From: Okeania sp.
GTDB lineage: Bacteria > Cyanobacteriota > Cyanobacteriia > Cyanobacteriales > Microcoleaceae
Length of the DNA stretch: 32,000 bases
Assembly (NCBI RefSeq): GCF_035285525.1
Contig: NZ_JAYKGW010000090.1
Coordinates: 30,001 to 62,000 of the forward strand
Direction: 5' to 3'
Each line of letters begins with the position of its first letter. The first letter of the stretch is position 1. The translations under genes and the position numbers were made by a program. Below, piece by piece: positions 13,861 through 31,000 of the stretch. Under the pieces are notes generated by a model, which made no database searches, was not told the DNA's origin, and was given only the letters and a program-made list of their open reading frames with translations.

Positions 13861-16653
13861 TTATGTATACCGTATTGCCTGATATATTCGTAATACTTTA
13901 ATTAACTCTTGAATCTGGATAGGTTTACTTAAATAATCATTCATTCCAGCATCAAAACATAACTGTTTATCAGTTTCCATAGCATTAGCAGTTACTGCAA
14001 TAATATAAGGTATTTCTGTAGGCAAAAATTGTTGACAAATTTTCTTTGTTGCCTCCAAACCATCCATTTCTGGCATTTGCATATCCATCAGAATAATATC
14101 ATATTTCCGAAGTTTCAAAGCTTCTAAAACTTCTAAACCATTAGCAGCAACATCTGCCAAATAACCTAATCTTTTTAAAATATTTATGGCAACTTTTTGG
14201 TTAACTCTATTATCTTCTGCCAATAAAATTTGTAAAGGTAGTTCCTCAGCTAATTGAGGAATTTCTGTGTTTTTATCTTTGGATGTTTTTGTGGTTAACT
14301 TAATGGGTTGTTTCTGAAAAATAGCTAATAATACTTGATAGAGTTGAGATGATTTGATTGGCTTTTGTAATGTTGCTGCAAAATTTATTTGTGCTAGTAA
14401 ATCCGATGTTAATGGCAGACCACTTGAGCTAAGTAATATTAATGGTAAATCTTGACATTTTCTAAGTTTACGAATTTCTCCTGCTAACTGCAACCCATCT
14501 ATTTCTGGCATTTGTAAATCTAAAATAGCTAGAGAAAATGGGTTTTCTTGTTGTAGTAATTGTAAAGCTTCGGAACCCGATCCGACTGAGTGAGGTTCAA
14601 CTCCCCAAGACTGAGTTTGGAGATGCAAAATTTTGCGGTTAGTGGCATTATCATCAACAATTAAAATTTGCTTATCGTCAAATTTAGCCTCTCCTGGAAT
14701 TAAATTAATATTAGTAGGAATAACTCCAACTTTGGCTTTTATTGTAAAATAAAATGTTGAACCTTTTCCTAACTCGCTGTCTAGCCATATTTTTCCTCCC
14801 ATCATTTCACTGAGGCGTTTACTAATAACTAAGCCTAAACCTGTACCTCCATATTTACGAGTTGTCGAAGCATCTACTTGAGTAAAAGACTGGAATAAAA
14901 TTTGTTGTTTATCTTTAGCAATACCAATACCTGTATCTCTAACAGAAAATTCTATTTGATAAACTAAATCGCATTTTTCGCTATTTTTTAATTGGTTATT
15001 TTTTTGTGAAATATCTTCAGCATTAACTTGCAAAATTACTTCACCAACATCAGTAAATTTAATTGCATTGTTTAAAAGATTGGTCAAAATTTGTCTCAGT
15101 CTAGTAACATCTGTAATGATACATTTCGGTGTAACTGGACTTATATAATAAGCAACTTCTAAGCCTTTTTTCTGAGCTACAGGATATAATAAATCTAAGA
15201 CTTCTTCTATACAACTACTAATCAATACTGGTTGGTATTCTAGCTCTAGTTTCCCAGAATCTATTTTGCTAAAATCCAAGATATCATTAATAATTGTTAG
15301 TAAAGAATCACCACTTGTTCTGATGGTTTCCACAAAATCTTTTTGTCGCTCAGATAGTTCAGTATTTAACAATAAACTTGTCATACCAATTACCCCATTC
15401 ATAGGAGTCCGAATTTCATGGCTCATAGTTGCGATAAAATCACTTTTTGCCCTGGTAGCTGCTAAAGCATCATCTCGTGCTTTTTCTAATTCTTGATTAG
15501 TTTTAAATAATTCTTGAGTGCGTTCTGCCACTAATTTTTTGATTTTTTTAGTCTGGTTAATATTCGTATTTAGATAACTACTAATACCTGCTGTTAAGCA
15601 TAACCCTAATGATAAAAATAACCAACCATCCCAGCTTTCTTTATTTTTGATATATTTCTGATTTGGAATTAATAAAAACAACCATTCTCTCTCACCTACT
15701 TTAACTGTTTTGATAAAGTTTCTACCTAAATCATTAGTAGCTAGTTTTAATTTGGCTAAAGCATCTACTTCCGTAATATTATTTGAGTAATTATCCCCTT
15801 TCTTAGATGAGGAAAAATAGAGAAATTTTTCTGATTCTGTACTAGCTGAAGTATCGTAAATATAAATATCAAATTGCTCCCCTTCAGTAGAAAAATTATC
15901 TAAATAATTTTCAAATAAATTTTCAATACTAAATACTCCTACAACAAACCCTTGTAAATTTTGGCGGAAATCGGCAATTGAATTATTAATTGATTGTTTT
16001 TGATATATAGGTTGAAAAATCAAGAAACCATTTGTATTTTCTGTTTTTTCTACTAATTTAATTTTAGCAGTAGCGATCGCTTCCCCAGTATCGCGAGCTT
16101 TTTCTAAAGCTGCTAGACGATTAGAATTAGAAGACAAATCAAATCCTAAAGCTTTTTCATTACCTTGATATGGTTCGACAAAATATACTGGAAAATACTC
16201 AGCTTTGAGGTTAGCTCGGACTATTTTTCCGGCTTCGTTATGCTGGGTAAATTGAAAATTAGAATAACCATCTTTTTGTGCCATTAATTCATATTTTTCT
16301 CTTTCACCAGCAGTAACATAAGGAATCCATTCTAGAGCTTGAATACTTGGCATCCGAGCTAAAAAAGATGAAACAAATTGTTTAAATTCTTCTCGATTTA
16401 CTTCTTGTGAACTTTCATAGAAACTTTTAAGTGATAATAATACATTTATTTCTTCTCTGATTTTATCTTCGATATAATCTACTTTATCTAATGCTAAAGA
16501 TTGAAATTCTATGGAAATTTTTTTTGATTCCCAATTTCTAACTACAGTAAACCCAATACCAGATAATAAAATGCCAATAATTATAGTTAACCATACTGGT
16601 AAATATTGTCTGAATAAATTATTTTTAGCTTGTTCATATTTGTTGGTATTCAT
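13861..16653 (-). CDS. Hybrid sensor histidine kinase: TM-CHASE-TM, HisKA, HATPase_c and two receiver domains
   Basis: 930-aa ORF. H-box SHEIRTPMNG, N-box LLNNAIKFT, G-boxes DTGIGI and GGTGLGL. Two REC domains have DLQMPEIDG and MDMQMPEMDG. The periplasmic region between two hydrophobic segments resembles CHASE. Confidence 0.9.
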   Translation of the reverse strand: MNTNKYEQAKNNLFRQYLPVWLTIIIGILLSGIGFTVVRNWESKKISIEFQSLALDKVDYIEDKIREEINVLLSLKSFYESSQEVNREEFKQFVSSFLARMPSIQALEWIPYVTAGEREKYELMAQKDGYSNFQFTQHNEAGKIVRANLKAEYFPVYFVEPYQGNEKALGFDLSSNSNRLAALEKARDTGEAIATAKIKLVEKTENTNGFLIFQPIYQKQSINNSIADFRQNLQGFVVGVFSIENLFENYLDNFSTEGEQFDIYIYDTSASTESEKFLYFSSSKKGDNYSNNITEVDALAKLKLATNDLGRNFIKTVKVGEREWLFLLIPNQKYIKNKESWDGWLFLSLGLCLTAGISSYLNTNINQTKKIKKLVAERTQELFKTNQELEKARDDALAATRAKSDFIATMSHEIRTPMNGVIGMTSLLLNTELSERQKDFVETIRTSGDSLLTIINDILDFSKIDSGKLELEYQPVLISSCIEEVLDLLYPVAQKKGLEVAYYISPVTPKCIITDVTRLRQILTNLLNNAIKFTDVGEVILQVNAEDISQKNNQLKNSEKCDLVYQIEFSVRDTGIGIAKDKQQILFQSFTQVDASTTRKYGGTGLGLVISKRLSEMMGGKIWLDSELGKGSTFYFTIKAKVGVIPTNINLIPGEAKFDDKQILIVDDNATNRKILHLQTQSWGVEPHSVGSGSEALQLLQQENPFSLAILDLQMPEIDGLQLAGEIRKLRKCQDLPLILLSSSGLPLTSDLLAQINFAATLQKPIKSSQLYQVLLAIFQKQPIKLTTKTSKDKNTEIPQLAEELPLQILLAEDNRVNQKVAINILKRLGYLADVAANGLEVLEALKLRKYDIILMDMQMPEMDGLEATKKICQQFLPTEIPYIIAVTANAMETDKQLCFDAGMNDYLSKPIQIQELIKVLRIYQAIRYT

Positions 16654-16824
16654 TGGAGCAAAATATATACATTAAGAAATAGCGATTATTATTATAGCGC
16701 TTTTCATTAACATAGAATACAAAAATGTAAACCACTGTCATTTCAGTTATAAGTTATCAGTACCTCAATGGAATAGGGAGGCTTGAAATACTGAATCAAT
16801 TTTTTTCATCCCCTTGAAAAAGGA

Positions 16825-17166
16825 ATGGGAAGATTATTATCCATTATTTTATCAATTATGAATTTCCAAGGAGGAATAGTTTTAATTGATGAAATTGAAA
16901 ATGGCATACATTATTCAGTGATGGAAAAAGTTTGGCAGTCTATTGATGTAGCAACTATAAAACTTAATACTCAACTTTTTGCGACTACTCATAGTTATGA
17001 ATGTATTGGTGCAGCTCATCAAGCATTTTATAACTCCAACTCTGAATCATATAATTTTTGTTATTTAAGATTAGAGAGAGAAAAAGAAACTAATTCTATC
17101 AAGAGTTTAGTTTATGACAAAGATAATATTGAAACTTCTTTAGAACTTAATTGGGAGATGCGCTAA
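16825..17166 (+). pseudogene. 3' fragment of an AAA/ABC-type ATPase gene (AAA_21-like)
   Basis: Only 113 codons remain. They include the Walker B block VLIDEIENGIH and the downstream ATTHS motif. Only about 170 nt separate the fragment from the kinase gene start, so the Walker A half is absent. Confidence 0.6.
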
Positions 17167-17750
17167 ATGATTCAGAATCAAAAAACTGAAAATATTAAAA
17201 AATCGAAGCTTATTCTTGGTGAAGGAAAAGATGAATAATCTTTCTTTTCTGCACTAATTCAACATTTAGAAATTGATGATATTCAAGTTCTTAGTTATGG
17301 AGGAAAAACCAAGCTTAACGAGGGTTTAAAAACTTTGCATTTAGTCCAGGGTTTTCGGATTTGCGCTCTTTATTAATTACTAGAGATGCTGATGAATTAT
17401 TCAATAATGCTTCTCAAAGTATTGATGGTTTTATTAAACTAATAAAAGATCGTAAAAATTTAACAATCAAAACATATATCTTTGCAGACAATAAGTCTGC
17501 AGGAATGTTATACTACCTTTGTTTAAAAGCAATTGATAGTTATGAAATGAGTTGTATTGAAGATTTTTTTCAGTGCATTAATAAAAATACAAATAGAGAA
17601 CCAAATGAATTTTCTAAAGCTAAAATTTACGCTTGGTTATCTACTCAAACAAAACCAGATAAACGTTTAGATGAAGTTGCTAAAGCAGGATATATTGACT
17701 GTAATAACGAAAAATTTAACGAATTAATAAATTTTATAAAAAGCCTTTGA
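17167..17750 (+). pseudogene. DUF3226-like (Toprim-like) partner gene, disrupted by an in-frame TAA and a frameshift
   Basis: The ATG at 17167 directly follows the ATPase stop (TAAATG). It encodes MIQNQKTENIKKSKLILGEGKDE, then a TAA at 17236..17238. The same frame continues as SFFSALIQHLEIDDIQVLSYGGKTKL..., and a frame change near 17345..17360 leads into ORF 17361..17750 (RSLLITRDADE...). The family call comes from motif memory only. Confidence 0.5.
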
Positions 17751-18072
17751 ATCGAATTATTAATTACCATTCAAATATTCAGAATATGCTGCACTCCCTT
17801 AAGCACCTAAACAGAATTATTTACACAGTTAAGATTCCACCTTATAAAAGATTATCGTAGAAATCCTAAATAAGTCAGAATCAGGATTCATCTCAATATT
17901 GCAAAAAGACTTTTTTCTTCCATACATATTCCCTGTTCCCTAAAAATACTCACCAACTATTTATCAATTTCTTATATAAGTCTCATATTTTTCACAGAAT
18001 AAATTAATATTGATTCTCCATACTTTATACATAAGCGAAAATTAAATTTAATTAACTGGAAGGAACAACATT

Positions 18073-18348
18073 ATGAAAAACATCAACAAAAAGTTAGCTT
18101 TAGCTACTGCAATGACTGGTGTATTAGCTGTTGGTATTGCTACTCTAGGTAATAATCAAGAAGCTCTTGCTGAAAAAGAAGGTATGGAGAAATGTGCTGG
18201 TATTGTTAAAGCAGGTCAAAATGATTGTGGTGCTAATGGTCATAGTTGTGCAGGTCTAGCTAAGAATGATTCAGATCCTAACGAATGGATTTACGTTCCT
18301 GAAGGTACTTGTCAGAAAATTGTTGGTGCAAAAATTGTTAATAAATAG
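18073..18348 (+). CDS. bufA: DUF2282-family secreted Cys-containing peptide (bufferin BufA1-type RiPP precursor)
   Basis: 91 aa with a Sec signal peptide ending QEALA-EKEG. The core [23 protein letters not shown]...[11 protein letters not shown] has four Cys spaced C-x10-C-x6-C-x20-C, matching the DUF2282 pattern. It lies directly upstream of DUF692 and DUF2063 genes. Confidence 0.8.
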
Positions 18349-18726
18349 GCTAAAACATATAAGTTAAAAATTTAGGTAATGATTGTCAGGCATTTTTGAA
18401 TAAAGTCATGGTTTAAGAATAATAAAAATAGGAAAGGGGGTGATTTTTTGGAATATATATAAACCCCTTTTCTTCTATTTATTGTTCGTTAATTAAATCA
18501 ACTGAAAATTTAAGAATGCCATATTTTTTCATAAAAATAGCTTATACCAAGTGTGATAAATATTTGTTACAAATGGAAGAAGGAAGAAACATTTAACAAA
18601 AAGGAATAAATGATAGAGATAAATATCTAAAATTAATTGGAGCAGCTATTTTTGAGGATTTCCGATAAACATCTATATTTTTGTAGCATTCTTTTTTCCA
18701 ATCAGTAGAAGGTACTAATAACTGAA

Positions 18727-19626
18727 ATGGCAACCTATTTAAAATCTAAAAATTTAGAAATTGATATTAGTTCTAAATTGCAAACAAATCCAAACATTCC
18801 CTATATTAATTCACGCTCTATTAAAGGTGCAGGAATTGGATTACGTTCTGTACATTATCAATATATTCTTAGTCAAAAACCCAAAATAAATTGGTTTGAA
18901 GTTTTATCAGATAACTATCTTTGTGCAGGTGGTTTACCACTATTTAATTTAGAAAAAATTCGTCAAAATTATCCAGTTACTCTACATGGAGTAGGAATGT
19001 CTCTGGGTTCAACAGACCCATTAAATTTAGATTATTTAACTAGATTAAAAAAATTAGCAGCAAAAGTTGAACCAGATTTAATTTCCGATCATTTATCTTG
19101 GATATCTGTTAATGGTCACTATCTTAATGATTTAATTCCTTTGGTTTATACAGAAGAGGTAATGGATTTTGTGGCATCTAGAATTTTGCAAGTACAAGAA
19201 TTTTTAGGCAGACAAATTTTGATTGAAAATCCCTCCCCGTATTTAACTTTTACAGATTCAACTATGTCAGAATGGGAGTTTATTGAAGGATTACTTAAAA
19301 CAGCAGATTGTTATTTACTTTTAGATGTAAATAATCTTTATGTCAATGCCATAAATAATAAAATTGACCCCCTACAATATTTAGATAGTATTCCTCCGAA
19401 TAGAGTTAAACAAATTCATTTAGCAGGTTACGAAGCAAAAGAAAATTATCTATTAGATACCCACGGTTATCCTGTACATTCTCCAGTTTGGGAATTGTAT
19501 AAAGAAGCATTAACTAGGTTCGGTGCTGTACCAACTTTAATAGAATGGGATACTAATATTCCCTCTTTTGAAGTATTAATGGCAGAAGCAAATAAAGCTG
19601 AAAAATTATTAGAAAATATAAAGTAA
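18727..19626 (+). CDS. bufB: DUF692 / MNIO-family (MbnB-like, BufB-type) multinuclear non-heme iron oxidative enzyme
   Basis: 299 aa. It has the DUF692 blocks GIGLRSVHY, NWFEVLSDNY, LHGVGMSLGS, ISDHLSW, LIENPSPY, LLLDVNNLYVNA, HLAGY, LDTHG and PTLIEWDTNIP. Confidence 0.88.
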   Translation: MATYLKSKNLEIDISSKLQTNPNIPYINSRSIKGAGIGLRSVHYQYILSQKPKINWFEVLSDNYLCAGGLPLFNLEKIRQNYPVTLHGVGMSLGSTDPLNLDYLTRLKKLAAKVEPDLISDHLSWISVNGHYLNDLIPLVYTEEVMDFVASRILQVQEFLGRQILIENPSPYLTFTDSTMSEWEFIEGLLKTADCYLLLDVNNLYVNAINNKIDPLQYLDSIPPNRVKQIHLAGYEAKENYLLDTHGYPVHSPVWELYKEALTRFGAVPTLIEWDTNIPSFEVLMAEANKAEKLLENIK

Positions 19627-20423
19627 TGGAAGCGATAACTCTACAAAATTTATTTCTACAAGCTGTTTTGGAAAAAGATAGTTTTAGTATAGAAAAATTA
19701 AGTCAACATATTAAAGCACCGAATAATTTAACACCTGCCGAAAGTTTGGCAATTTACCACAATAATGTTGTGGGAAATTTAAGTAATACATTAGTCTCAA
19801 TTTATCCTGTTTGTTGTCAGTTATTAGGTGAAAAATTTTTTAATGCTACGGGATTAAAATTTATTGAAAAGTTTCCTTGTTTATCACCAGACTTAGGAGA
19901 TTATGGGGAAGAGTTTGCAGATTTTTTGGCTAATTTTGAACCTGTAAAAGATTTACCATATTTGTCAGATGTAGCCCGTTTAGAATGGCATTGGCATCGT
20001 ATTTTTGCTGGTGAAAATACAAATGGTTTAGATTTCCAAACTTTAGGAGAAATTCCTCAAGAAAAATGGGGGGAATTGATTTTTTATTTACCAAAAAATA
20101 GTGTTTTATTAGAGTCTATCTATCCTATTCATAGAATTTGGCAAGTTAATCAATCTGATTATCAAGGGGATGAAGTAGTTAGTTTAGATGAAGGTGGAGT
20201 AAAAATATTTTTGTGGCGACAAGGTTATGATATGCGAATTGATTTACCTAAAGATGATGAGTGGGAATTATTAACAGTTTTTCAAGGAAATTATCCAGTT
20301 GAAATTATCTGTGAAAAATTAGTTGATGTTGAATCTGAAGTGGATGTTGGTTTGTTACTGCCATTGTTTGTGCAACGAGGTTGGATTACTAATTTTTCTA
20401 TAGTAGGGGTGGGTTTTAACTAG
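19626..20423 (+). CDS. bufC: DUF2063-family partner protein (BufC-type)
   Basis: 265 aa. Its start overlaps the bufB stop (TAATG). It has DUF2063-like features: IYHNNVVGNLSNTL..IYPV, DLGDYGEEFADFL and YLSDVARLEWHWHR. Confidence 0.8.
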   Translation: MEAITLQNLFLQAVLEKDSFSIEKLSQHIKAPNNLTPAESLAIYHNNVVGNLSNTLVSIYPVCCQLLGEKFFNATGLKFIEKFPCLSPDLGDYGEEFADFLANFEPVKDLPYLSDVARLEWHWHRIFAGENTNGLDFQTLGEIPQEKWGELIFYLPKNSVLLESIYPIHRIWQVNQSDYQGDEVVSLDEGGVKIFLWRQGYDMRIDLPKDDEWELLTVFQGNYPVEIICEKLVDVESEVDVGLLLPLFVQRGWITNFSIVGVGFN

Positions 20424-20567
20424 AATTTCCATACTTATTCTAAGATTTATATAAACCCACCTTTTCATTTATCAAATAATTAATAGTAGGGGTGGGTTTT
20501 AACTAAAATTTCCATACTTATTCTAAGATTTATATAAACCCACCCTTTCATTTATCAAATAATTAAT
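20401..20567 (+). repeat. 83-bp tandem duplication x2 that starts inside the last codons of bufC
   Basis: Unit TAGTAGGGGTGGGTTTTAACTAGAATTTCCATACTTATTCTAAGATTTATATAAACCCACC(C)TTTTCATTTATCAAATAATTAA. The copies at 20401..20483 and 20484..20566 differ at about 2 positions. Each has GGGTGGGTTT...AAACCCACC inverted arms. Confidence 0.85.
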
Positions 20568-20587
20568 CATCCATTCAACTGTTATTT

Positions 20588-20716
20588 TGTAGCCATAAAA
20601 ATCATTTGTGAGAAAAAAAACGGTAGGGGTTTAATCTCCAAATTCCTTGGCACTTCCCTTGAGAAACCAAACCTACCCCTACCATAAAATCTTACAATCT
20701 ATTTAGGATTGCTATA
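20588..20716 (-). repeat. MITE-like dispersed repeat, CACAAATCATT family, copy C (inverted)
   Basis: Reverse complement of the 12556..12680 architecture: AAATCATTTGTGAGAAAAAAAA, then GGTAGGGGT...ACCTACCCCTACC, then AAATCTTACAATCTATTTAGGATTGCTATA. Confidence 0.65.
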
Positions 20717-20739
20717 TATTAGAACATAGACTTATGTAA

Positions 20740-20800
20740 TTTCCTTCTTCCTTCTTCCTTTTTTCTTCTTTATTCTTCCTTCTTTACTTCTTTTTTCTTT
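20740..20800 (+). repeat. Polypyrimidine (CTT/CCTT-rich) tract of about 60 nt upstream of the 671-aa gene
   Basis: TTCCTTCTTCCTTCTTCCTTTTTTCTTCTTTATTCTTCCTTCTTTACTTCTTTTTTCTTT, with only two purines. It is complementary in composition to the tract at 22893..22960. Confidence 0.8.
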
Positions 20801-20884
20801 AGTGTGATAATAAATTAATAACTCAAAGCTAATAGCTAATAGCTGAGAGCTAAATGTTTACCTTAAGTTCTTAAAAAAGAATAG

Positions 20885-22900
20885 ATGAAAGAAATCCTTT
20901 ACTTAGAAGTACCAACGCCAGATACGAAAACTGTTTGTCAATGGCTACAATCTCAATTTCAACCTGGTTTTGGCCAAAAAAATATAACTCCAGATGGCTT
21001 TATTCTCAAACTTCCTGAAGACCCTACTCAGGAAATATCTGTCTTTTTATGGTCATTACAACGAACTACCTATCTGAAAGTATTTGCTGAAGGAAATATA
21101 TCTTCAATACAGCAAAAATTTACCTCAAATTTAACTAACAATTTACGAAAAGAATTTCCTCTAAACTATCCAGAACCTCCCCAAATTGATCTATCTAATC
21201 AGTCAATTTTTACAGCTTTAGCATCTGATTATCCCTTGACAGTTAAATACTTTCAAAAAATGCCTAAAGGAGAGTATTATCTCAACCGTTTATATTGGTG
21301 GGAAAAACGTTGGCGAGAATCAGTTAAAAATCCTCAAAAACCTAAACAGGTGCTTTGGAAAAAAGAGTCAGAAACTAATAATAATTCAGTTGAATATGAC
21401 TTAATTTATGTTGGTGGCGCTCTGGGAATAGTTCATGCAGCAGTCATGGCAAGATTGGGATATAAAGTATTATTATTAGAACGTTTACGTTTCGGTACAA
21501 TGAATCGAGAATGGAATATTTCTCGCTCCGAAATTCAAGGTTTAATTGATTTAGGTTTATTTACAAATACAGAAGTAGAAAACTTAATTGCCAGAGAATA
21601 TAAAGATGGATTTAATAATTTTTTTGATGCTAATAATCCGGATTTTTGTAAAGCAGAAATTCTCCATACTCCCACAGTTTTAAATTTGGCATTAGATTCA
21701 GAAAAATTATTAACTTTATGTGGAAATAAACTCCTAGAAGCTGGTGGAAAAATCGTCGATGAAACAGAATTTATTAAAGCTGATATTGAACCAGAAAAAG
21801 TAGTAGTTTACACTCAAAATCTATCTACCAAAACTGAACAAATTTTCTCTGGTCGTTTGTTAATAGATGCTATGGGTACTGCTTCTCCTATCGCTTGGCA
21901 ATTAAATGGAAAACGAGCTTTCGATAGTGTTTGTCCCACAGTCGGAGCTGTAATAGATGGTGGATTTGAACCAGGTGTTTGGGATTCAAATTATGGAGAT
22001 GTTCTCAATAGTCATGGAGATATTTCTCGCGGGAGACAATTAATTTGGGAGTTATTTCCTGGTAAAGATAATGAGTTAACAATTTATCTATTTCATTATC
22101 ATCAAGTTCATCCAGAAAACCCTGGTTCTCTGTTAGAAATGTATGAAGATTTTTTCACTATTTTACCAGAATATCGACGCTGTGATCTGGATAAATTAGT
22201 ATGGAAAAAGCCAACATTTGGTTATATTCCTGGGCATTTTAGTATTAAAGGTAGCGATCGCCAAGTTGCTTTTGACCGTCTAGTTTGTATTGGTGATGCT
22301 GCTTCTCTCCAGTCTCCCTTAGTATTTACTGGTTTTGGTTCTTTAGTGAGAAATTTACCTCGTTTAACTGAACTTTTAGATACTGCTTTAAAATATGATT
22401 TACTCAGTGCCAATAACTTAAATAAAATTCGTGCTTATCAAAGCAATATTGCCATTACTTGGTTATTTTCTAAAGGTATGATGGTTCCTACTGGTAAGTT
22501 TTTACCTCCCCAAAAAATCAATTCTATTTTGAATACATTCTTTGGCTTATTAGCAGATTCTCCCCCAGAAGTAGCAGATACTTTTATTAAAGATAGGGCT
22601 GATTGGTGGACTTTTACAAAACTAGCTCTCAAAGCAGCCAGAATCAATCCTTATCTTTTATTCTGGATTCTAGACTTTATTAATTTCCAGGAAATATTAC
22701 TGTGGATAACCAGTTATATTAATTTCACTTTGTTTAGTTTAATAAGTTGGTTATTCGGATGGTTCCCTAGTTTTGCTCGTTCGATTCAACCTTGGTTAGA
22801 ACCTCGTTTTCCTGGTTTATGGTTTTGGATATTAGCTAATAGTTATGCTTTAACTTATAATGTCGGTCAACCACAGATGAATTTCCAATTACAAAAGTAA
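20885..22900 (+). CDS. FAD-dependent oxidoreductase with a hydrophobic C-terminus; possibly a CruA/CruP-type lycopene cyclase family protein
   Basis: 671-aa ORF. It has a dinucleotide-binding fold, YDLIYVGGALGIVHAAVMARLGYKVLLLER, after an N-terminal domain of about 170 aa. C-terminal hydrophobic segments include LLFWILDFINF...LFSLISWLFGWF. The CruA assignment comes from size, architecture and memory, not from a search. Confidence 0.45.
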   Translation: MKEILYLEVPTPDTKTVCQWLQSQFQPGFGQKNITPDGFILKLPEDPTQEISVFLWSLQRTTYLKVFAEGNISSIQQKFTSNLTNNLRKEFPLNYPEPPQIDLSNQSIFTALASDYPLTVKYFQKMPKGEYYLNRLYWWEKRWRESVKNPQKPKQVLWKKESETNNNSVEYDLIYVGGALGIVHAAVMARLGYKVLLLERLRFGTMNREWNISRSEIQGLIDLGLFTNTEVENLIAREYKDGFNNFFDANNPDFCKAEILHTPTVLNLALDSEKLLTLCGNKLLEAGGKIVDETEFIKADIEPEKVVVYTQNLSTKTEQIFSGRLLIDAMGTASPIAWQLNGKRAFDSVCPTVGAVIDGGFEPGVWDSNYGDVLNSHGDISRGRQLIWELFPGKDNELTIYLFHYHQVHPENPGSLLEMYEDFFTILPEYRRCDLDKLVWKKPTFGYIPGHFSIKGSDRQVAFDRLVCIGDAASLQSPLVFTGFGSLVRNLPRLTELLDTALKYDLLSANNLNKIRAYQSNIAITWLFSKGMMVPTGKFLPPQKINSILNTFFGLLADSPPEVADTFIKDRADWWTFTKLALKAARINPYLLFWILDFINFQEILLWITSYINFTLFSLISWLFGWFPSFARSIQPWLEPRFPGLWFWILANSYALTYNVGQPQMNFQLQK

Positions 22901-22960
22901 AGAAAGAAGAAAGAAGAAAGAAGGCTTTAGTTATCTAGGAGAGAAGGAAGAAGGAAAGAG
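22893..22960 (+). repeat. Polypurine (GAA/GGAA-rich) tracts straddling the stop codon and 3' end of the 671-aa gene
   Basis: AAAAGTAAAGAAAGAAGAAAGAAGAAAGAAGG and AGGAGAGAAGGAAGAAGGAAAGAG. A 15-nt stretch, GAAGGAAGAAGGAAA, is the exact complement of part of 20740..20760. Confidence 0.8.
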
Positions 22961-22979
22961 CGAATGTAATTCGCTCTTT
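22955..22979 (+). terminator. Candidate intrinsic terminator of the 671-aa gene
   Basis: 11-bp perfect stem AAAGAGCGAAT / ATTCGCTCTTT with loop GTA. The U-tail is only short. Confidence 0.5.
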
Positions 22980-22980
22980 C

Positions 22981-23043
22981 ATTATCAATTATCAATTATC
23001 AATTATCAATTATCAATTATCAATTATCAATTATTAATTATTC
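22981..23043. repeat. Heptamer tandem repeat ATTATCA x6, plus 2-3 degenerate units (STRR-like)
   Basis: Read directly. Shorter versions of the same motif (TCATTATCAATTATC, TTATTATCAATTA) recur at 24102..24116 and 27928..27940. Confidence 0.85.
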
Positions 23044-28027: not shown

Positions 28028-31000
28028 CTAAAGCTGAATCCTAAAATCCGTGACACCAATATCCGGCGCACCCTCTAATTTAACAAACAAACCGCCATTC
28101 CCCAAACCAGCTTTGTTACCATTACTATTGTAAAACAGTTCTCCGCTCTCGTCATTGTAAACAATAAATGCTTTGCTGCTAGCAACCTCGGCAGCATCAT
28201 CAACAACTGCAAATTCCCGTTTGCGACTGAAACTATTACCTTGAAGACTCTTGATAACTTTAAACGCGCTTTTGTCGAGAATAAGTTTGTCTTCACCCAA
28301 TATAAAGTCAGTTATTTCATCGGTTTCTGTTTTCTTAAAGTCAGCAAAAATAAAGGAATCTCTGCCTTTGCCTCCAGTTAATATATCCTCCCCTTTACCG
28401 CCATTGAGTTTGTCTTTACCCTTGCCTCCAAGTAGGGTGTCGTTGCCGTTTTTCCCCAACAGTTTGTCGTTACCGCCCTTGCCATCTAACACATCGTCTA
28501 GATTACTGCCTCTGAGAGTATTTCTACGATTGTTGCCGTTTTTAATAATGCCTTGGTTTGGGTTATTTAAGGAGTCAATTATTTCCTGACCCGTGAGGTT
28601 ATCCACAGTCTCAATGAAACCTTCACCTTTGTTGCCTTTTTCGTCGAAAAAGTTGTTAATAGTCAGTTCTTTAGTAATTACTATCTTACCATTTTTCTCC
28701 TCCAATAATTGGGAAGACTCTCCACTAAAGAGTTCCATCAGTTCTTTGTCGATATTTTGCTTGATCGTAGCGATCTTCCCATTTCCATCAATATCTATTA
28801 CTAGATCGGTACCTTGACGCAAAAAGCCAGTCTTGCCTTTAGCTAAACCACCTTCAGAAAGATCGACATCTTCTAGTTCGAGACGATCTTTACCACCAGT
28901 ATCAATGATCTGACTACCAGATGCGTTTTTAGCTTGGAGTATGTATAAATCATCTCCATCACCACCGTTCAAAATATCAGCATCGCCTCCACCTTCGAGA
29001 GTATCTTTCCCATCACCACCTTCGAGACTGTCGTTTCCAGTACCACCATCTACTTCATCATCACCTACACCACCAGATATAATGTCTTGACCATCACCAC
29101 CACTAATCACATCTGCTTGATTTCCTGAAGTTGATTTCAGTTGAAAATCTCCCAAGATAAAATCGTTTCCAGTACCACCAAACATTGTGTCAGCACCTTC
29201 ACCTCCAGACATAATATCTTCTCCAGCATTACCCCAGATTTGGTCGTCACCACCTTTGGCATAAACTGCATCATCTCCATCAAGAGACCTGATAACATCT
29301 GCCTCATCTTGACCAACCAAATGATTATCTTGACTGGTATCAACTAATTTTTTGCTGTTCTGTGCGACTCCAAAAATTGTTTCTAACTCCTCTATGTCTG
29401 TTATATTTGTAGGATTCAAAACCAAGTGAGTTAAATGAGAATATCCTTCGGGTTCAGCGATGGTGTAGGTGACATCAATGGTTGCGGATGTGGCAGTTAC
29501 AGTTTTAGGTAGTTTGACTTTCCAAGCATCTTTGGCGCTGTTGACGGTAATAGTTTTACCATCCTGAGTTACTTCTAGATTGCTAATTACTAGATCGTCT
29601 AAAGTGTAGAGATTTTTTACTTCTATATCGGGATCGCTAAAGTTCTGGAGGAGAAATTCTTTGGGCAGGCTAAATTCTTTTAAACCACTGGGTAGATCGT
29701 AATCCCAGCGAGCTGGTGTTTGACCAGGTTGACGAATATTACCCTCAGCCAAATCTACGCGATCGACTGCCCATTCGTTATCAAGTTGTATTTGAGCAGT
29801 TTGGCCGTCAGTTGTAATAGCTTCCGAATAAAAGAGACGCGATCGCTGGTCGTTACCAAAGGGATCGAGAATAGGCTCGTTAGCTTTTTTACTCTTGTTA
29901 TAAACTGAGTCTGGTACGAGGATGGAGTTAACATCTTCTGTCTCAAACTTAATCAAACCAATTCCAAATAGCAGATCGACTGTACCATCTGGTTTTGTTA
30001 CTTCTACTGCATTTTCATAAGTTTCGGAAGCTCGGATCGCATAATCCTGAGAACTACCTTCCGTGTAAACTACCACATCGCTCAAGAATGGAGAAGTAAA
30101 ACCATCGAAAGCTACAGGCTCCCCAGTAGTTGAAGTAGAAGCAGACATTATAAAAACGTTTTCCCCAGGGCTAATAATAGTATTGTTACCCCCGCCGGAA
30201 TAAATAAAATTATAGGTGTTGGCATCGGCAACTAATTTATCATCTCCTTCTCCTAAGTGGTAGCTAACCATCGGTACATATTGAGCATAAGATGTTTTTG
30301 GGAAATTACTCTCTAGAGGTTGAGAGGTAAATGGTTTAACTTTTTGTAAATCATTTTTAGTGAAATTGAAATCAGAGCTTATGTTTGCGTATTCAGCATT
30401 TAAGATTGTGTCTGCTTTATCAGTAAATATAACTTCAGGAATGTAGCTGCTATATACTCCGCCTACTCCTCCTGGTAGTTCTGTATTGTCAAAGGCATCT
30501 TTTAAACTACTGAAGTCAACCCTGTTCACTTTTCCTAATGCGAACCAATGGGTTCCATCCAGAACTTTTGTACTTTCAAAAACAACCTCATCAAATATAT
30601 CGTCATCTATTCCTAAGGTTAGCGCACTCCTAATATTATCTTTGAGAATAACTTTCCGATAGGCGTCATCTTGATTAGGTTGTCTCCCACGAATTAAAAT
30701 GTTTTCTACAAGAGACCAACCAATAGTAAAGGTTTGTTTTGACGGTGACTGCAAGGAATAGCGTTCGTCGCTACCTACTTCTTTTCTAGCTGAAGATCCC
30801 GCCAAGTCAGCAGAAGCTATAATCAAAGATTTTAAGTCAGCATCAATGCGATCGAGAGTGAAGAAAGGTCCACTGCGACTTTCTCGGGGATCGTAATATT
30901 TAATAAAGTTAGAGTCATCAATTTCAACTTCCACTTCTGATAAGTCGGAAACACCTATCTTTCTCTCAAGTGCTTGAGTTTCCAAGACAAGAGTATATTC

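Follow-up and report, generated by a model that had tools for sequence, protein, structure and literature searches.

A probable Buf1-type bufferin cluster, bufA-bufB-bufC, in the cyanobacterium Okeania sp. and the candidate operator upstream of it

The 32,000-nucleotide stretch analysed here, from the marine filamentous cyanobacterium Okeania sp. (hereafter the window; positions 30,001 to 62,000 of contig NZ_JAYKGW010000090.1, assembly GCF_035285525.1) carries three co-directional, full-length open reading frames (ORFs) that very probably constitute a self-contained, apparently functional Buf1-type bufferin cluster, bufA-bufB-bufC, with BufABC chemistry ascribed to it by homology with Caulobacter Buf1. 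An earlier note, written from the sequence alone, had proposed such a cluster in a cyanobacterium, with products of 91, 299 and 265 amino acids (aa). Every sequence and fold test that we ran supports this proposal; the coordinates and strand were confirmed, and the profile check suggested in the note, with DUF2282, DUF692 (MNIO) and DUF2063, returned the expected protein for each family. Judged by these profiles, the three-gene match to the bufferin families is far above chance. All testable defining features of a Buf1-type bufferin biosynthetic gene cluster are present, and the two that are missing are accessory: DoxX, which is common in Buf1 clusters though not required, and a linked ECF sigma/NrsF anti-sigma pair, which only some Buf1 clusters have. 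The cluster is already machine-annotated in public databases as bufferin-type: a protein 100% identical to BufA is present in NCBI (Okeania sp., as a DUF2282 protein), and the UniRef name for BufA is "BufA1 family periplasmic bufferin-type metallophore". A short Logan contig carries the same bufA, bufB and bufC together with the same upstream remnants. Our literature search returned nothing specific to cyanobacterial bufferins, on which the accessible portions of the main text of the bufferin papers are silent.

18073-18348, + strand: bufA, 91 aa, Buf1/DUF2282 precursor
18727-19626, + strand: bufB, 299 aa, MNIO (DUF692) bufferin maturase
19626-20423, + strand: bufC, 265 aa, DUF2063 + RRE-type partner protein

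The precursor matches PF10048 (DUF2282, now BufA1 in Pfam) over profile positions 1-51 of 53, with an expect value (E) of 1.6e-23 and 82.9 bits against a cutoff of 22.4; against the BufA2 model of NCBIfam (cutoff 60 bits) it scores 19.5 bits, below the cutoff. Its four cysteines, C41, C52, C59 and C80, have the C-x10-C-x6-C-x20-C spacing described in the earlier note. In an alignment of 38 BufA homologues they are invariant, as are A33, E39, K40, N50, D51, H57 and W72, and they also line up with the cysteines of proteobacterial BufA. The identity with Litoribrevibacter BufA is 62%, with strong conservation relative to proteobacterial Buf1 of the residues around the modified cysteines. Residues 1-33 appear to form a Sec-type signal peptide (the n-region is rich in Lys, residues 8-25 are hydrophobic and the last residue of an A-L-A motif is the invariant A33) with predicted cleavage after Ala33, which would leave a core of 58 aa (residues 34-91) with an average mass, unmodified, of about 6078 Da; the only hydrophobic stretch of BufA is this cleavable N-terminal signal. 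The AlphaFold2 model, with a predicted local distance difference test score (pLDDT) of 70.8, shows a helix at 5-26, strands at 38-42 and 72-76 forming a two-stranded sheet, and a short helix, an architecture that agrees with the published description of BufA1 (PMC11626156). A fold search with this moderate model found no meaningful counterpart in the PDB, in a library in which no bufferin structure was detectable. The top-scoring BufA homologues (P0001, P0003-P0009 and P0012, about 150 aa) are tandem two-domain Buf1-Buf1 proteins, and a 149-aa precursor at a Ca. Thiomargarita nelsonii locus (L027, 1112-1561), preceded by a DUF302 gene, is probably of the same tandem type.

BufB matches PF05114 (MNIO) with E 2e-107 and is the only protein of the cluster to exceed an NCBIfam equivalog cutoff, scoring 372.4 bits against MNIO_BufB (NF050167, cutoff 310), while it falls below the cutoffs of the HvfB, ApyH, MbnB and ChrH models. 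Its nearest structure is the DUF692 protein 3bww (E 1e-48). H87, D121/H122, E167, D200/N203, H231, D244/H246 and E273 are invariant among orthologues; all of these except E273 align with identical residues of MbnB (7tcr), and E273 aligns with a Glu in MbnB 7dz9 and in 3bww. By comparison with the MbnB structures, we take these invariant His, Asp, Glu and Asn positions to be the iron ligands of the TIM-barrel active site.

BufC matches PF09836 (DUF2063) over residues 6-101 (E 4.9e-22), and its length of 265 aa fits the narrow class of full DUF2063-RRE partners, described as 250-260 aa (PMC12452194). Sequence and profile searches of the PDB gave marginal matches to TALE repeats and a hemagglutinin-esterase, which we dismissed as chance; these searches being uninformative, a fold search was needed. 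The AlphaFold2 model, built with 49 homologues (pLDDT 91.7), matches TglI (8hi7_A; probability 1.00, E 4e-6, template modelling (TM) score 0.60) and NGO1945 (3dee; E 4e-5, TM 0.70 on the target), in each case over both domains. TglI is the partner of the MNIO TglH, and NGO1945, the archetypal DUF2063+RRE protein, has been reinterpreted as an MNIO partner (PMC12452194). The nearest non-cyanobacterial relatives of BufC are found in the large sulfur bacteria Ca. Thiomargarita (61% identity) and Ca. Parabeggiatoa (58%), a similarity that gives a hint of horizontal exchange between these bacteria and filamentous cyanobacteria.

The arrangement of the genes was compared with 18 loci from species-representative genomes (eight Okeania, three Dapis, three Trichodesmium, Symploca, Oscillatoria, a Microcoleaceae metagenome-assembled genome (MAG) and two further MAGs), two Moorena loci and that of Synechococcus sp. 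RSCCF101. The order and orientation bufA-bufB-bufC are identical in about 22 other cyanobacterial loci, while their flanks are mutually unrelated and unlike the window; given this constancy amid unrelated flanks, selection acts on the three genes as a unit. No DoxX or sigma/anti-sigma gene lies within about 6 kb of the cluster in these loci. In the window, a Pfam scan of 24 ORFs of at least 90 aa, comprising the three buf genes and all neighbours (the four unscanned ORFs are overlapping shadow frames), gave no match to DoxX, sigma-70 (Sigma70_r2/r4) or NrsF. Two bufferin-linked DoxX seeds, from Litoribrevibacter (L026:7123-7578, Pfam-annotated as DoxX) and Massilia (L024:2288-2719), were searched against all six frames of the entire window and likewise found nothing; this search recovered both controls, with E as low as 1e-97, and gave no E below 0.12 for the window or for the cyanobacterial loci searched. 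At the proteobacterial control loci DoxX lies immediately 3' of bufC. Among 83 flanking ORFs scanned with Pfam there was no recurrent neighbour family, and DoxX, sigma-70 and NrsF were not among the families with at least two matches (best 25 families). At the Synechococcus RSCCF101 locus, which lay outside the seed search, the precomputed Pfam gene list holds no DoxX, sigma-70 or NrsF within 5 kb. A plastocyanin or copper-transport gene linked to the cluster was found in none of the loci compared.

The earlier note was therefore right that no DoxX-like or sigma/anti-sigma gene is adjacent, as the window scans agree. This absence is not peculiar to the strain: it is the rule in about 22 other cyanobacterial loci, and DoxX is dispensable in Caulobacter, where BufD1/DoxX is needed neither for copper protection nor for modification and where the buf2 operon has no DoxX (PMC11626156). 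A 2025 survey reports that the core bufferin genes occur "in various combinations" (PMC12452194), and the available part of its genome table shows model cyanobacteria without Buf1, MNIO or DUF2063 genes and often with one or two unlinked DoxX genes (PMC12452194). As far as that part goes, the table would confine bufferins to a subset of the phylum and makes an unlinked DoxX elsewhere in the Okeania genome plausible. Two of the related clusters look decayed, one in a Trichodesmium MAG (jk18x7bins.61, L023), where bufB is frameshifted and bufC stops early, the other in a Microcoleaceae MAG (MO_207.B10, L006/P0035), with a stop at bufC codon 145 and a precursor that has lost two cysteines and contains an internal duplication; both come from MAGs, in which assembly errors are possible.

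The non-coding features of the locus are as follows.

17945-18072, + strand: conserved region upstream of bufA, a probable promoter/operator with a short leader, delimited by alignment across genera
17970-17986, + strand: direct hexamer repeat, candidate transcription-factor site, TCTTAT-ATAAG-TCTCAT in the window (clade consensus TCTCAG-N5-TCTCAG)
18349-18726, + strand: bufA-bufB spacer, 378 bp, with an extended hairpin at 18410-18499 and then a T-rich tail
20400-20565, + strand: two tandem copies, 98% identical, of an 83-nt hairpin-containing repeat, overlapping the 3' end of bufC

The roughly 130 bp before bufA (17945-18072) can be aligned across Okeania, Dapis and Trichodesmium, while sequence farther upstream is unrelated; a Shine-Dalgarno-like GGAAGG stands about 8-13 nt 5' of the bufA ATG. 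Within this block, the hexamers recur with a period of 11 bp from start to start. Each of 18 cyanobacterial loci holds a single copy of the pattern TCTCAK-N5-TCTCAK and no other, in every case on the + (coding) strand and about 85-155 nt upstream of the bufA ATG (for example at L007 5424-5440, L021 5327-5343 and L004 7928-7944). It persists in Oscillatoria and Moorena, although the rest of the upstream block has diverged there; Synechococcus RSCCF101 and Thiomargarita lack it ahead of bufA. On this conservation, the direct repeat is probably an operator, a candidate site for a regulator encoded elsewhere. Direct repeats spaced by 11 bp, or one helical turn, are typical of winged-helix response regulators, and a regulator of that type would fit here. 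An RNA element was considered for the same block and rejected: Rfam gave no match in the window, and RNAalifold returned -3.9 kcal/mol with 1 of 16 pairs compensatory, so that, with next to no covariation, a DNA operator is preferred. The PetR motif GAC-N5-GTC (bioRxiv 10.1101/2020.07.31.226407) is not present, and PetR was therefore not matched; for CopR, the Synechocystis copper transcriptome paper gives no CopR box to compare. A generic promoter and terminator scan was uninformative, with matches at or near shuffled expectation and terminator matches inside coding sequence.

The long gap between precursor and enzyme genes is shared, with bufA-bufB spacers of 154-717 bp in 20/20 other loci, and several Okeania loci have a similar hairpin with a TATTTAT-type tail 60-100 nt past the bufA stop. 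In the window the hairpin has an inner 12-bp stem (18430-18474), and the segment 18349-18500 folds at -31 kcal/mol (z = -2.3); by its fold it is a possible partial terminator. The spacer holds no second precursor, as there is no Cys-rich or precursor-like ORF among those of at least 20 aa. The one-base overlap of bufB and bufC reported in the earlier note (TAATG) is present at 19626, where the TAA stop overlaps the ATG start in GTAATGG, and it recurs at eight further loci. A gap of 94-607 bp parts the two genes instead in most Okeania as well as in one Dapis and in Symploca (L008, L010, L012-L017, L020 and L022), and the gene calls of the two Moorena loci show gaps of about 100-340 bp. A purine-rich GGAAGAAGGAAG-type sequence at 18571-18609 is imperfectly complementary (76-77%) to a pyrimidine-rich one at 20732-20784, the pair bracketing bufB and bufC; this may be a coincidence of low complexity.

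The tandem unit at 20400-20565 confirms the downstream repeat elements mentioned in the earlier note, and its two copies are the only full ones in the window. Each holds an internal inverted repeat, GGGGTGGGTTT/AAACCCACC, and a degenerate relative at 18430-18475 is the hairpin of the bufA-bufB spacer, with the right arm ATATATAAACCC in common. The last six codons of bufC and its stop derive from the first copy. BufC orthologues align only up to residue 259, the conserved end ...QRGWIxxFxI is intact in the window and the tail past ...FSI is variable in all genomes; the repeat-derived end therefore looks harmless, and the protein, on this alignment, should function. The tandem repeat itself is possibly an operon terminator or a small mobile repeat. 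Several BufC tails at other loci end in KKEEGRGKKEE, encoded by purine-rich simple repeats like that at 20732-20800 of the window, and in Okeania sp. SIO3I5 (L008) a partial bufC duplicate (residues 1-120) precedes the full gene.

How such a cluster would work can be sketched from Caulobacter, where BufA1, BufB1 and BufC1 are necessary and sufficient for modification, at -4 Da per modified Cys, and where genetics and in-vitro reconstitution have established the roles of precursor, enzyme and partner (PMC11626156). In Buf1 the two central cysteines become 5-thiooxazoles, while a disulfide joins the outer two (PMC12452194); later work strengthened the 5-thiooxazole assignment and applied it to oxazolin as well (bioRxiv 10.64898/2026.06.05.730506). 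The earlier note gave the conversion of Cys to 5-thiooxazole and the loss of 4 Da each, which stands per modified Cys and fails if applied to all four, only the central two being converted (PMC12452194). By that rule C52 and C59 would be modified here and C41 and C80 bridged, for a predicted shift of -8 Da (reduced) or -10 Da, not -16 Da. The note had also named both Caulobacter and Bordetella as organisms in which bufferins were characterised; this is correct for Caulobacter vibrioides, while the Bordetella operon was merely cited as BvgAS-regulated.

In the mechanism that we propose, BufA would first be made as the 91-aa precursor. Still in the cytoplasm, its central C52 and C59 (CysII and CysIII) would be oxidised to 5-thiooxazoles, with -4 Da each, by the MNIO BufB, an enzyme that depends on iron and O2 and that the DUF2063/RRE protein BufC would hold on the substrate. 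The Sec signal (residues 1-33) would then direct export, signal peptidase would cut after Ala33, and C41 and C80 (CysI and CysIV) would close a disulfide, giving a folded 58-aa product that would bind copper through its thiooxazoles and buffer excess metal outside the cytoplasm. DoxX would be dispensable in this scheme; control by an ECF sigma/anti-sigma pair would be replaced by a regulator encoded elsewhere, probably acting on the TCTCAG direct repeat, and the long spacer and hairpin after bufA would probably keep precursor mRNA above enzyme mRNA. For the cyanobacterial bufferin, we infer the chemistry, the copper specificity, the compartment, the type of regulator and the attenuation.

Among known systems, Caulobacter vibrioides buf1 (bufA1B1C1D1, CCNA_03363-03366; PMC11626156) shares with the Okeania cluster a DUF2282 precursor with a Sec signal and four conserved cysteines, a BufB-type MNIO, a DUF2063+RRE partner and the gene order A-B-C. 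It differs in having bufD (DoxX) and a nearby SigF/NrsF pair, both missing from the Okeania cluster, which has a 378-bp bufA-bufB spacer, a clade-specific upstream direct repeat and a predicted mature peptide of 58 aa instead of 68 aa, in a host with thylakoids. Caulobacter vibrioides buf2 (CCNA_02999-03001) is likewise a three-gene cluster naturally without DoxX, which shows the A-B-C core to be sufficient, although its precursor belongs to the 6-Cys Buf2 family and not to DUF2282. The oxazolin system, hvfABC(X) of Haemophilus influenzae (PMC11252979; bioRxiv 10.64898/2026.06.05.730506), also makes a Sec-exported, MNIO-modified copper-binding peptide with an RRE partner, and its Cys modifications are now assigned as 5-thiooxazoles too. 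Its precursor, however, has repeated EGKCG motifs instead of the DUF2282 fold, the hvf operon has a DoxX-like gene, and the Okeania BufB, at 255 bits against the HvfB cutoff of 360, is not an HvfB equivalog. More remote is methanobactin (MbnABC), in which an MNIO and its partner oxidise Cys to copper-binding heterocycles and the metal-ligand positions align with those of BufB. MbnB belongs to a distant MNIO subfamily (62 bits for the Okeania BufB against a cutoff of 325), and methanobactin also differs in its precursor, which is short, depends on a leader and lacks a Sec signal, in its oxazolone-thioamide chemistry, in its dedicated exporter and in its role in copper acquisition.

Several points weigh against the bufferin reading of the window or against parts of it. 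The function of the cyanobacterial bufferin rests on homology with Caulobacter Buf1, and a Sec signal in a cyanobacterium leaves periplasm and thylakoid lumen undistinguished. The signal peptide of BufA was called by inspection, and the BufA model is moderately confident and has no PDB counterpart. The post-bufA hairpin exceeds shuffled sequence in stability by a modest margin and escaped the terminator scan, and the window copy of the direct repeat has a diverged first hexamer (TCTTAT, not TCTCAG). The surroundings are decayed, with a defence-gene remnant upstream and a repeat inserted in the 3' end of bufC, and the two decayed clusters in relatives indicate that loss is tolerated in the lineage. 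From this last group of observations one may argue that the cluster in this strain is an inactive relic heading to decay in a degraded, repeat-invaded region, a position that can cite the truncated AbiL/PDC-M38 genes directly upstream, the repeat in place of the last bufC codons, the diverged operator hexamer and the decayed clusters L023 and L006/P0035. We judge this very unlikely, since bufA, bufB and bufC are all full length and keep every invariant BufA, BufB and BufC residue; the BufC tail varies in all genomes, and the second hexamer of Moorena likewise reads TCTCAT.

A different objection accepts the cluster and assigns its product another job, whether supplying thylakoid-lumen copper for plastocyanin or cytochrome oxidase, scavenging copper in the sea or binding another thiophilic metal. 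Sec signals of cyanobacteria can lead to either membrane system, control apparently runs through a clade-specific operator and not through the proteobacterial metal-stress ECF sigma/NrsF pair, and most of the named source organisms are cyanobacteria from marine or benthic settings. Published bufferin-MerC fusions, moreover, make other metals possible (PMC12452194). The residues near the modified cysteines are nevertheless conserved with proteobacterial Buf1 to the extent seen with Litoribrevibacter, which points to the same ligand chemistry, and BufA bears no lumen-specific signal and has no linked plastocyanin or copper-transport gene at any locus; on balance, another job seems to us unlikely, and a thylakoid-related role differing from that in proteobacteria is pure speculation. 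A more elaborate proposal would have marine filamentous cyanobacteria keep the bufferin under a lineage-specific circuit, made of the TCTCAG repeat and a response-regulator-type factor, for a use specific to oxygenic phototrophs (buffering lumen copper for plastocyanin, or coping with scarce or toxic copper in seawater) in place of the proteobacterial stress detoxification, with the cluster perhaps exchanged with large sulfur bacteria; we regard the whole of it as quite unlikely. The older database reading, in which the DUF2282 protein is an integral membrane protein and the DUF2063 protein a DNA-binding regulator with no link to peptide modification, persists in the labels 'DNA-binding domain-containing protein' (NCBI, bufC product) and 'uncharacterized membrane protein' (JGI, bufA product). 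It is already contradicted by the fold of BufC, which resembles MNIO partner proteins, and by the published Caulobacter genetics and in-vitro reconstitution (PMC11626156). With the hydrophobic stretch of BufA confined to a cleavable signal and NGO1945 itself reread as an MNIO partner (PMC12452194), that reading is barely credible. The self-contained Buf1-type cluster thus remains our preferred interpretation.

Copper is essential to these cyanobacteria, for plastocyanin and cytochrome oxidase, and is also toxic to them. A recently described and very widespread class of modified copper-buffering peptides is extended here to a coherent and ecologically important cyanobacterial group that includes Okeania, Trichodesmium, Moorena and relatives, in which A-B-C emerges as the minimal module, the modified cysteines and the mass shift are predicted, and the candidate operator could be used to find the regulator and its signal. 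The conserved operator and the clade-wide three-gene architecture are modest additions to a known family; the Okeania cluster is an ordinary additional member of it and leaves the understanding of bufferins unchanged.

Away from the cluster, the window has the look of ordinary cyanobacterial chromosome. The decayed ATPase module that the earlier note placed upstream is real: the ORFs at 16825-17166 and 17361-17750 are what remains, at the C-terminal ends, of a two-gene anti-phage defence system of the AbiL/PDC-M38 type, in which an AbiLi-like AAA ATPase is paired with an AbiLii/DUF3226 partner. In Dapis sp. BLCC M229 a pair of this type is intact and flanks the buf cluster on the opposite side (L011 7880-9565, - strand). 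Elsewhere the window encodes GTP cyclohydrolase I, phosphoglucomutase, a flavoprotein of the succinate dehydrogenase/fumarate reductase type, a patatin-like protein, a CHASE hybrid histidine kinase (13861-16653), DUF4058 and a large RTX protein, along with transposase fragments. The histidine kinase and a 671-aa ORF (20885-22900, + strand) were considered as linked genes and rejected, both being found beside buf genes in no other locus. The C-terminus of the 671-aa product is hydrophobic, and its sequence includes an FAD/NAD Rossmann motif (DLIYVGGALG); it matches no Pfam family, and its NCBIfam matches are weak and geranylgeranyl-reductase-like. The G+C fraction is 0.28-0.34 at about 14000-23000 (0.30 in the buf cluster) and about 0.37-0.47 in the rest of the window; as the low-G+C stretch reaches from the histidine kinase across the defence remnants and the buf cluster to the 671-aa ORF, it extends well past the buf genes and does not mark them as a discrete island.

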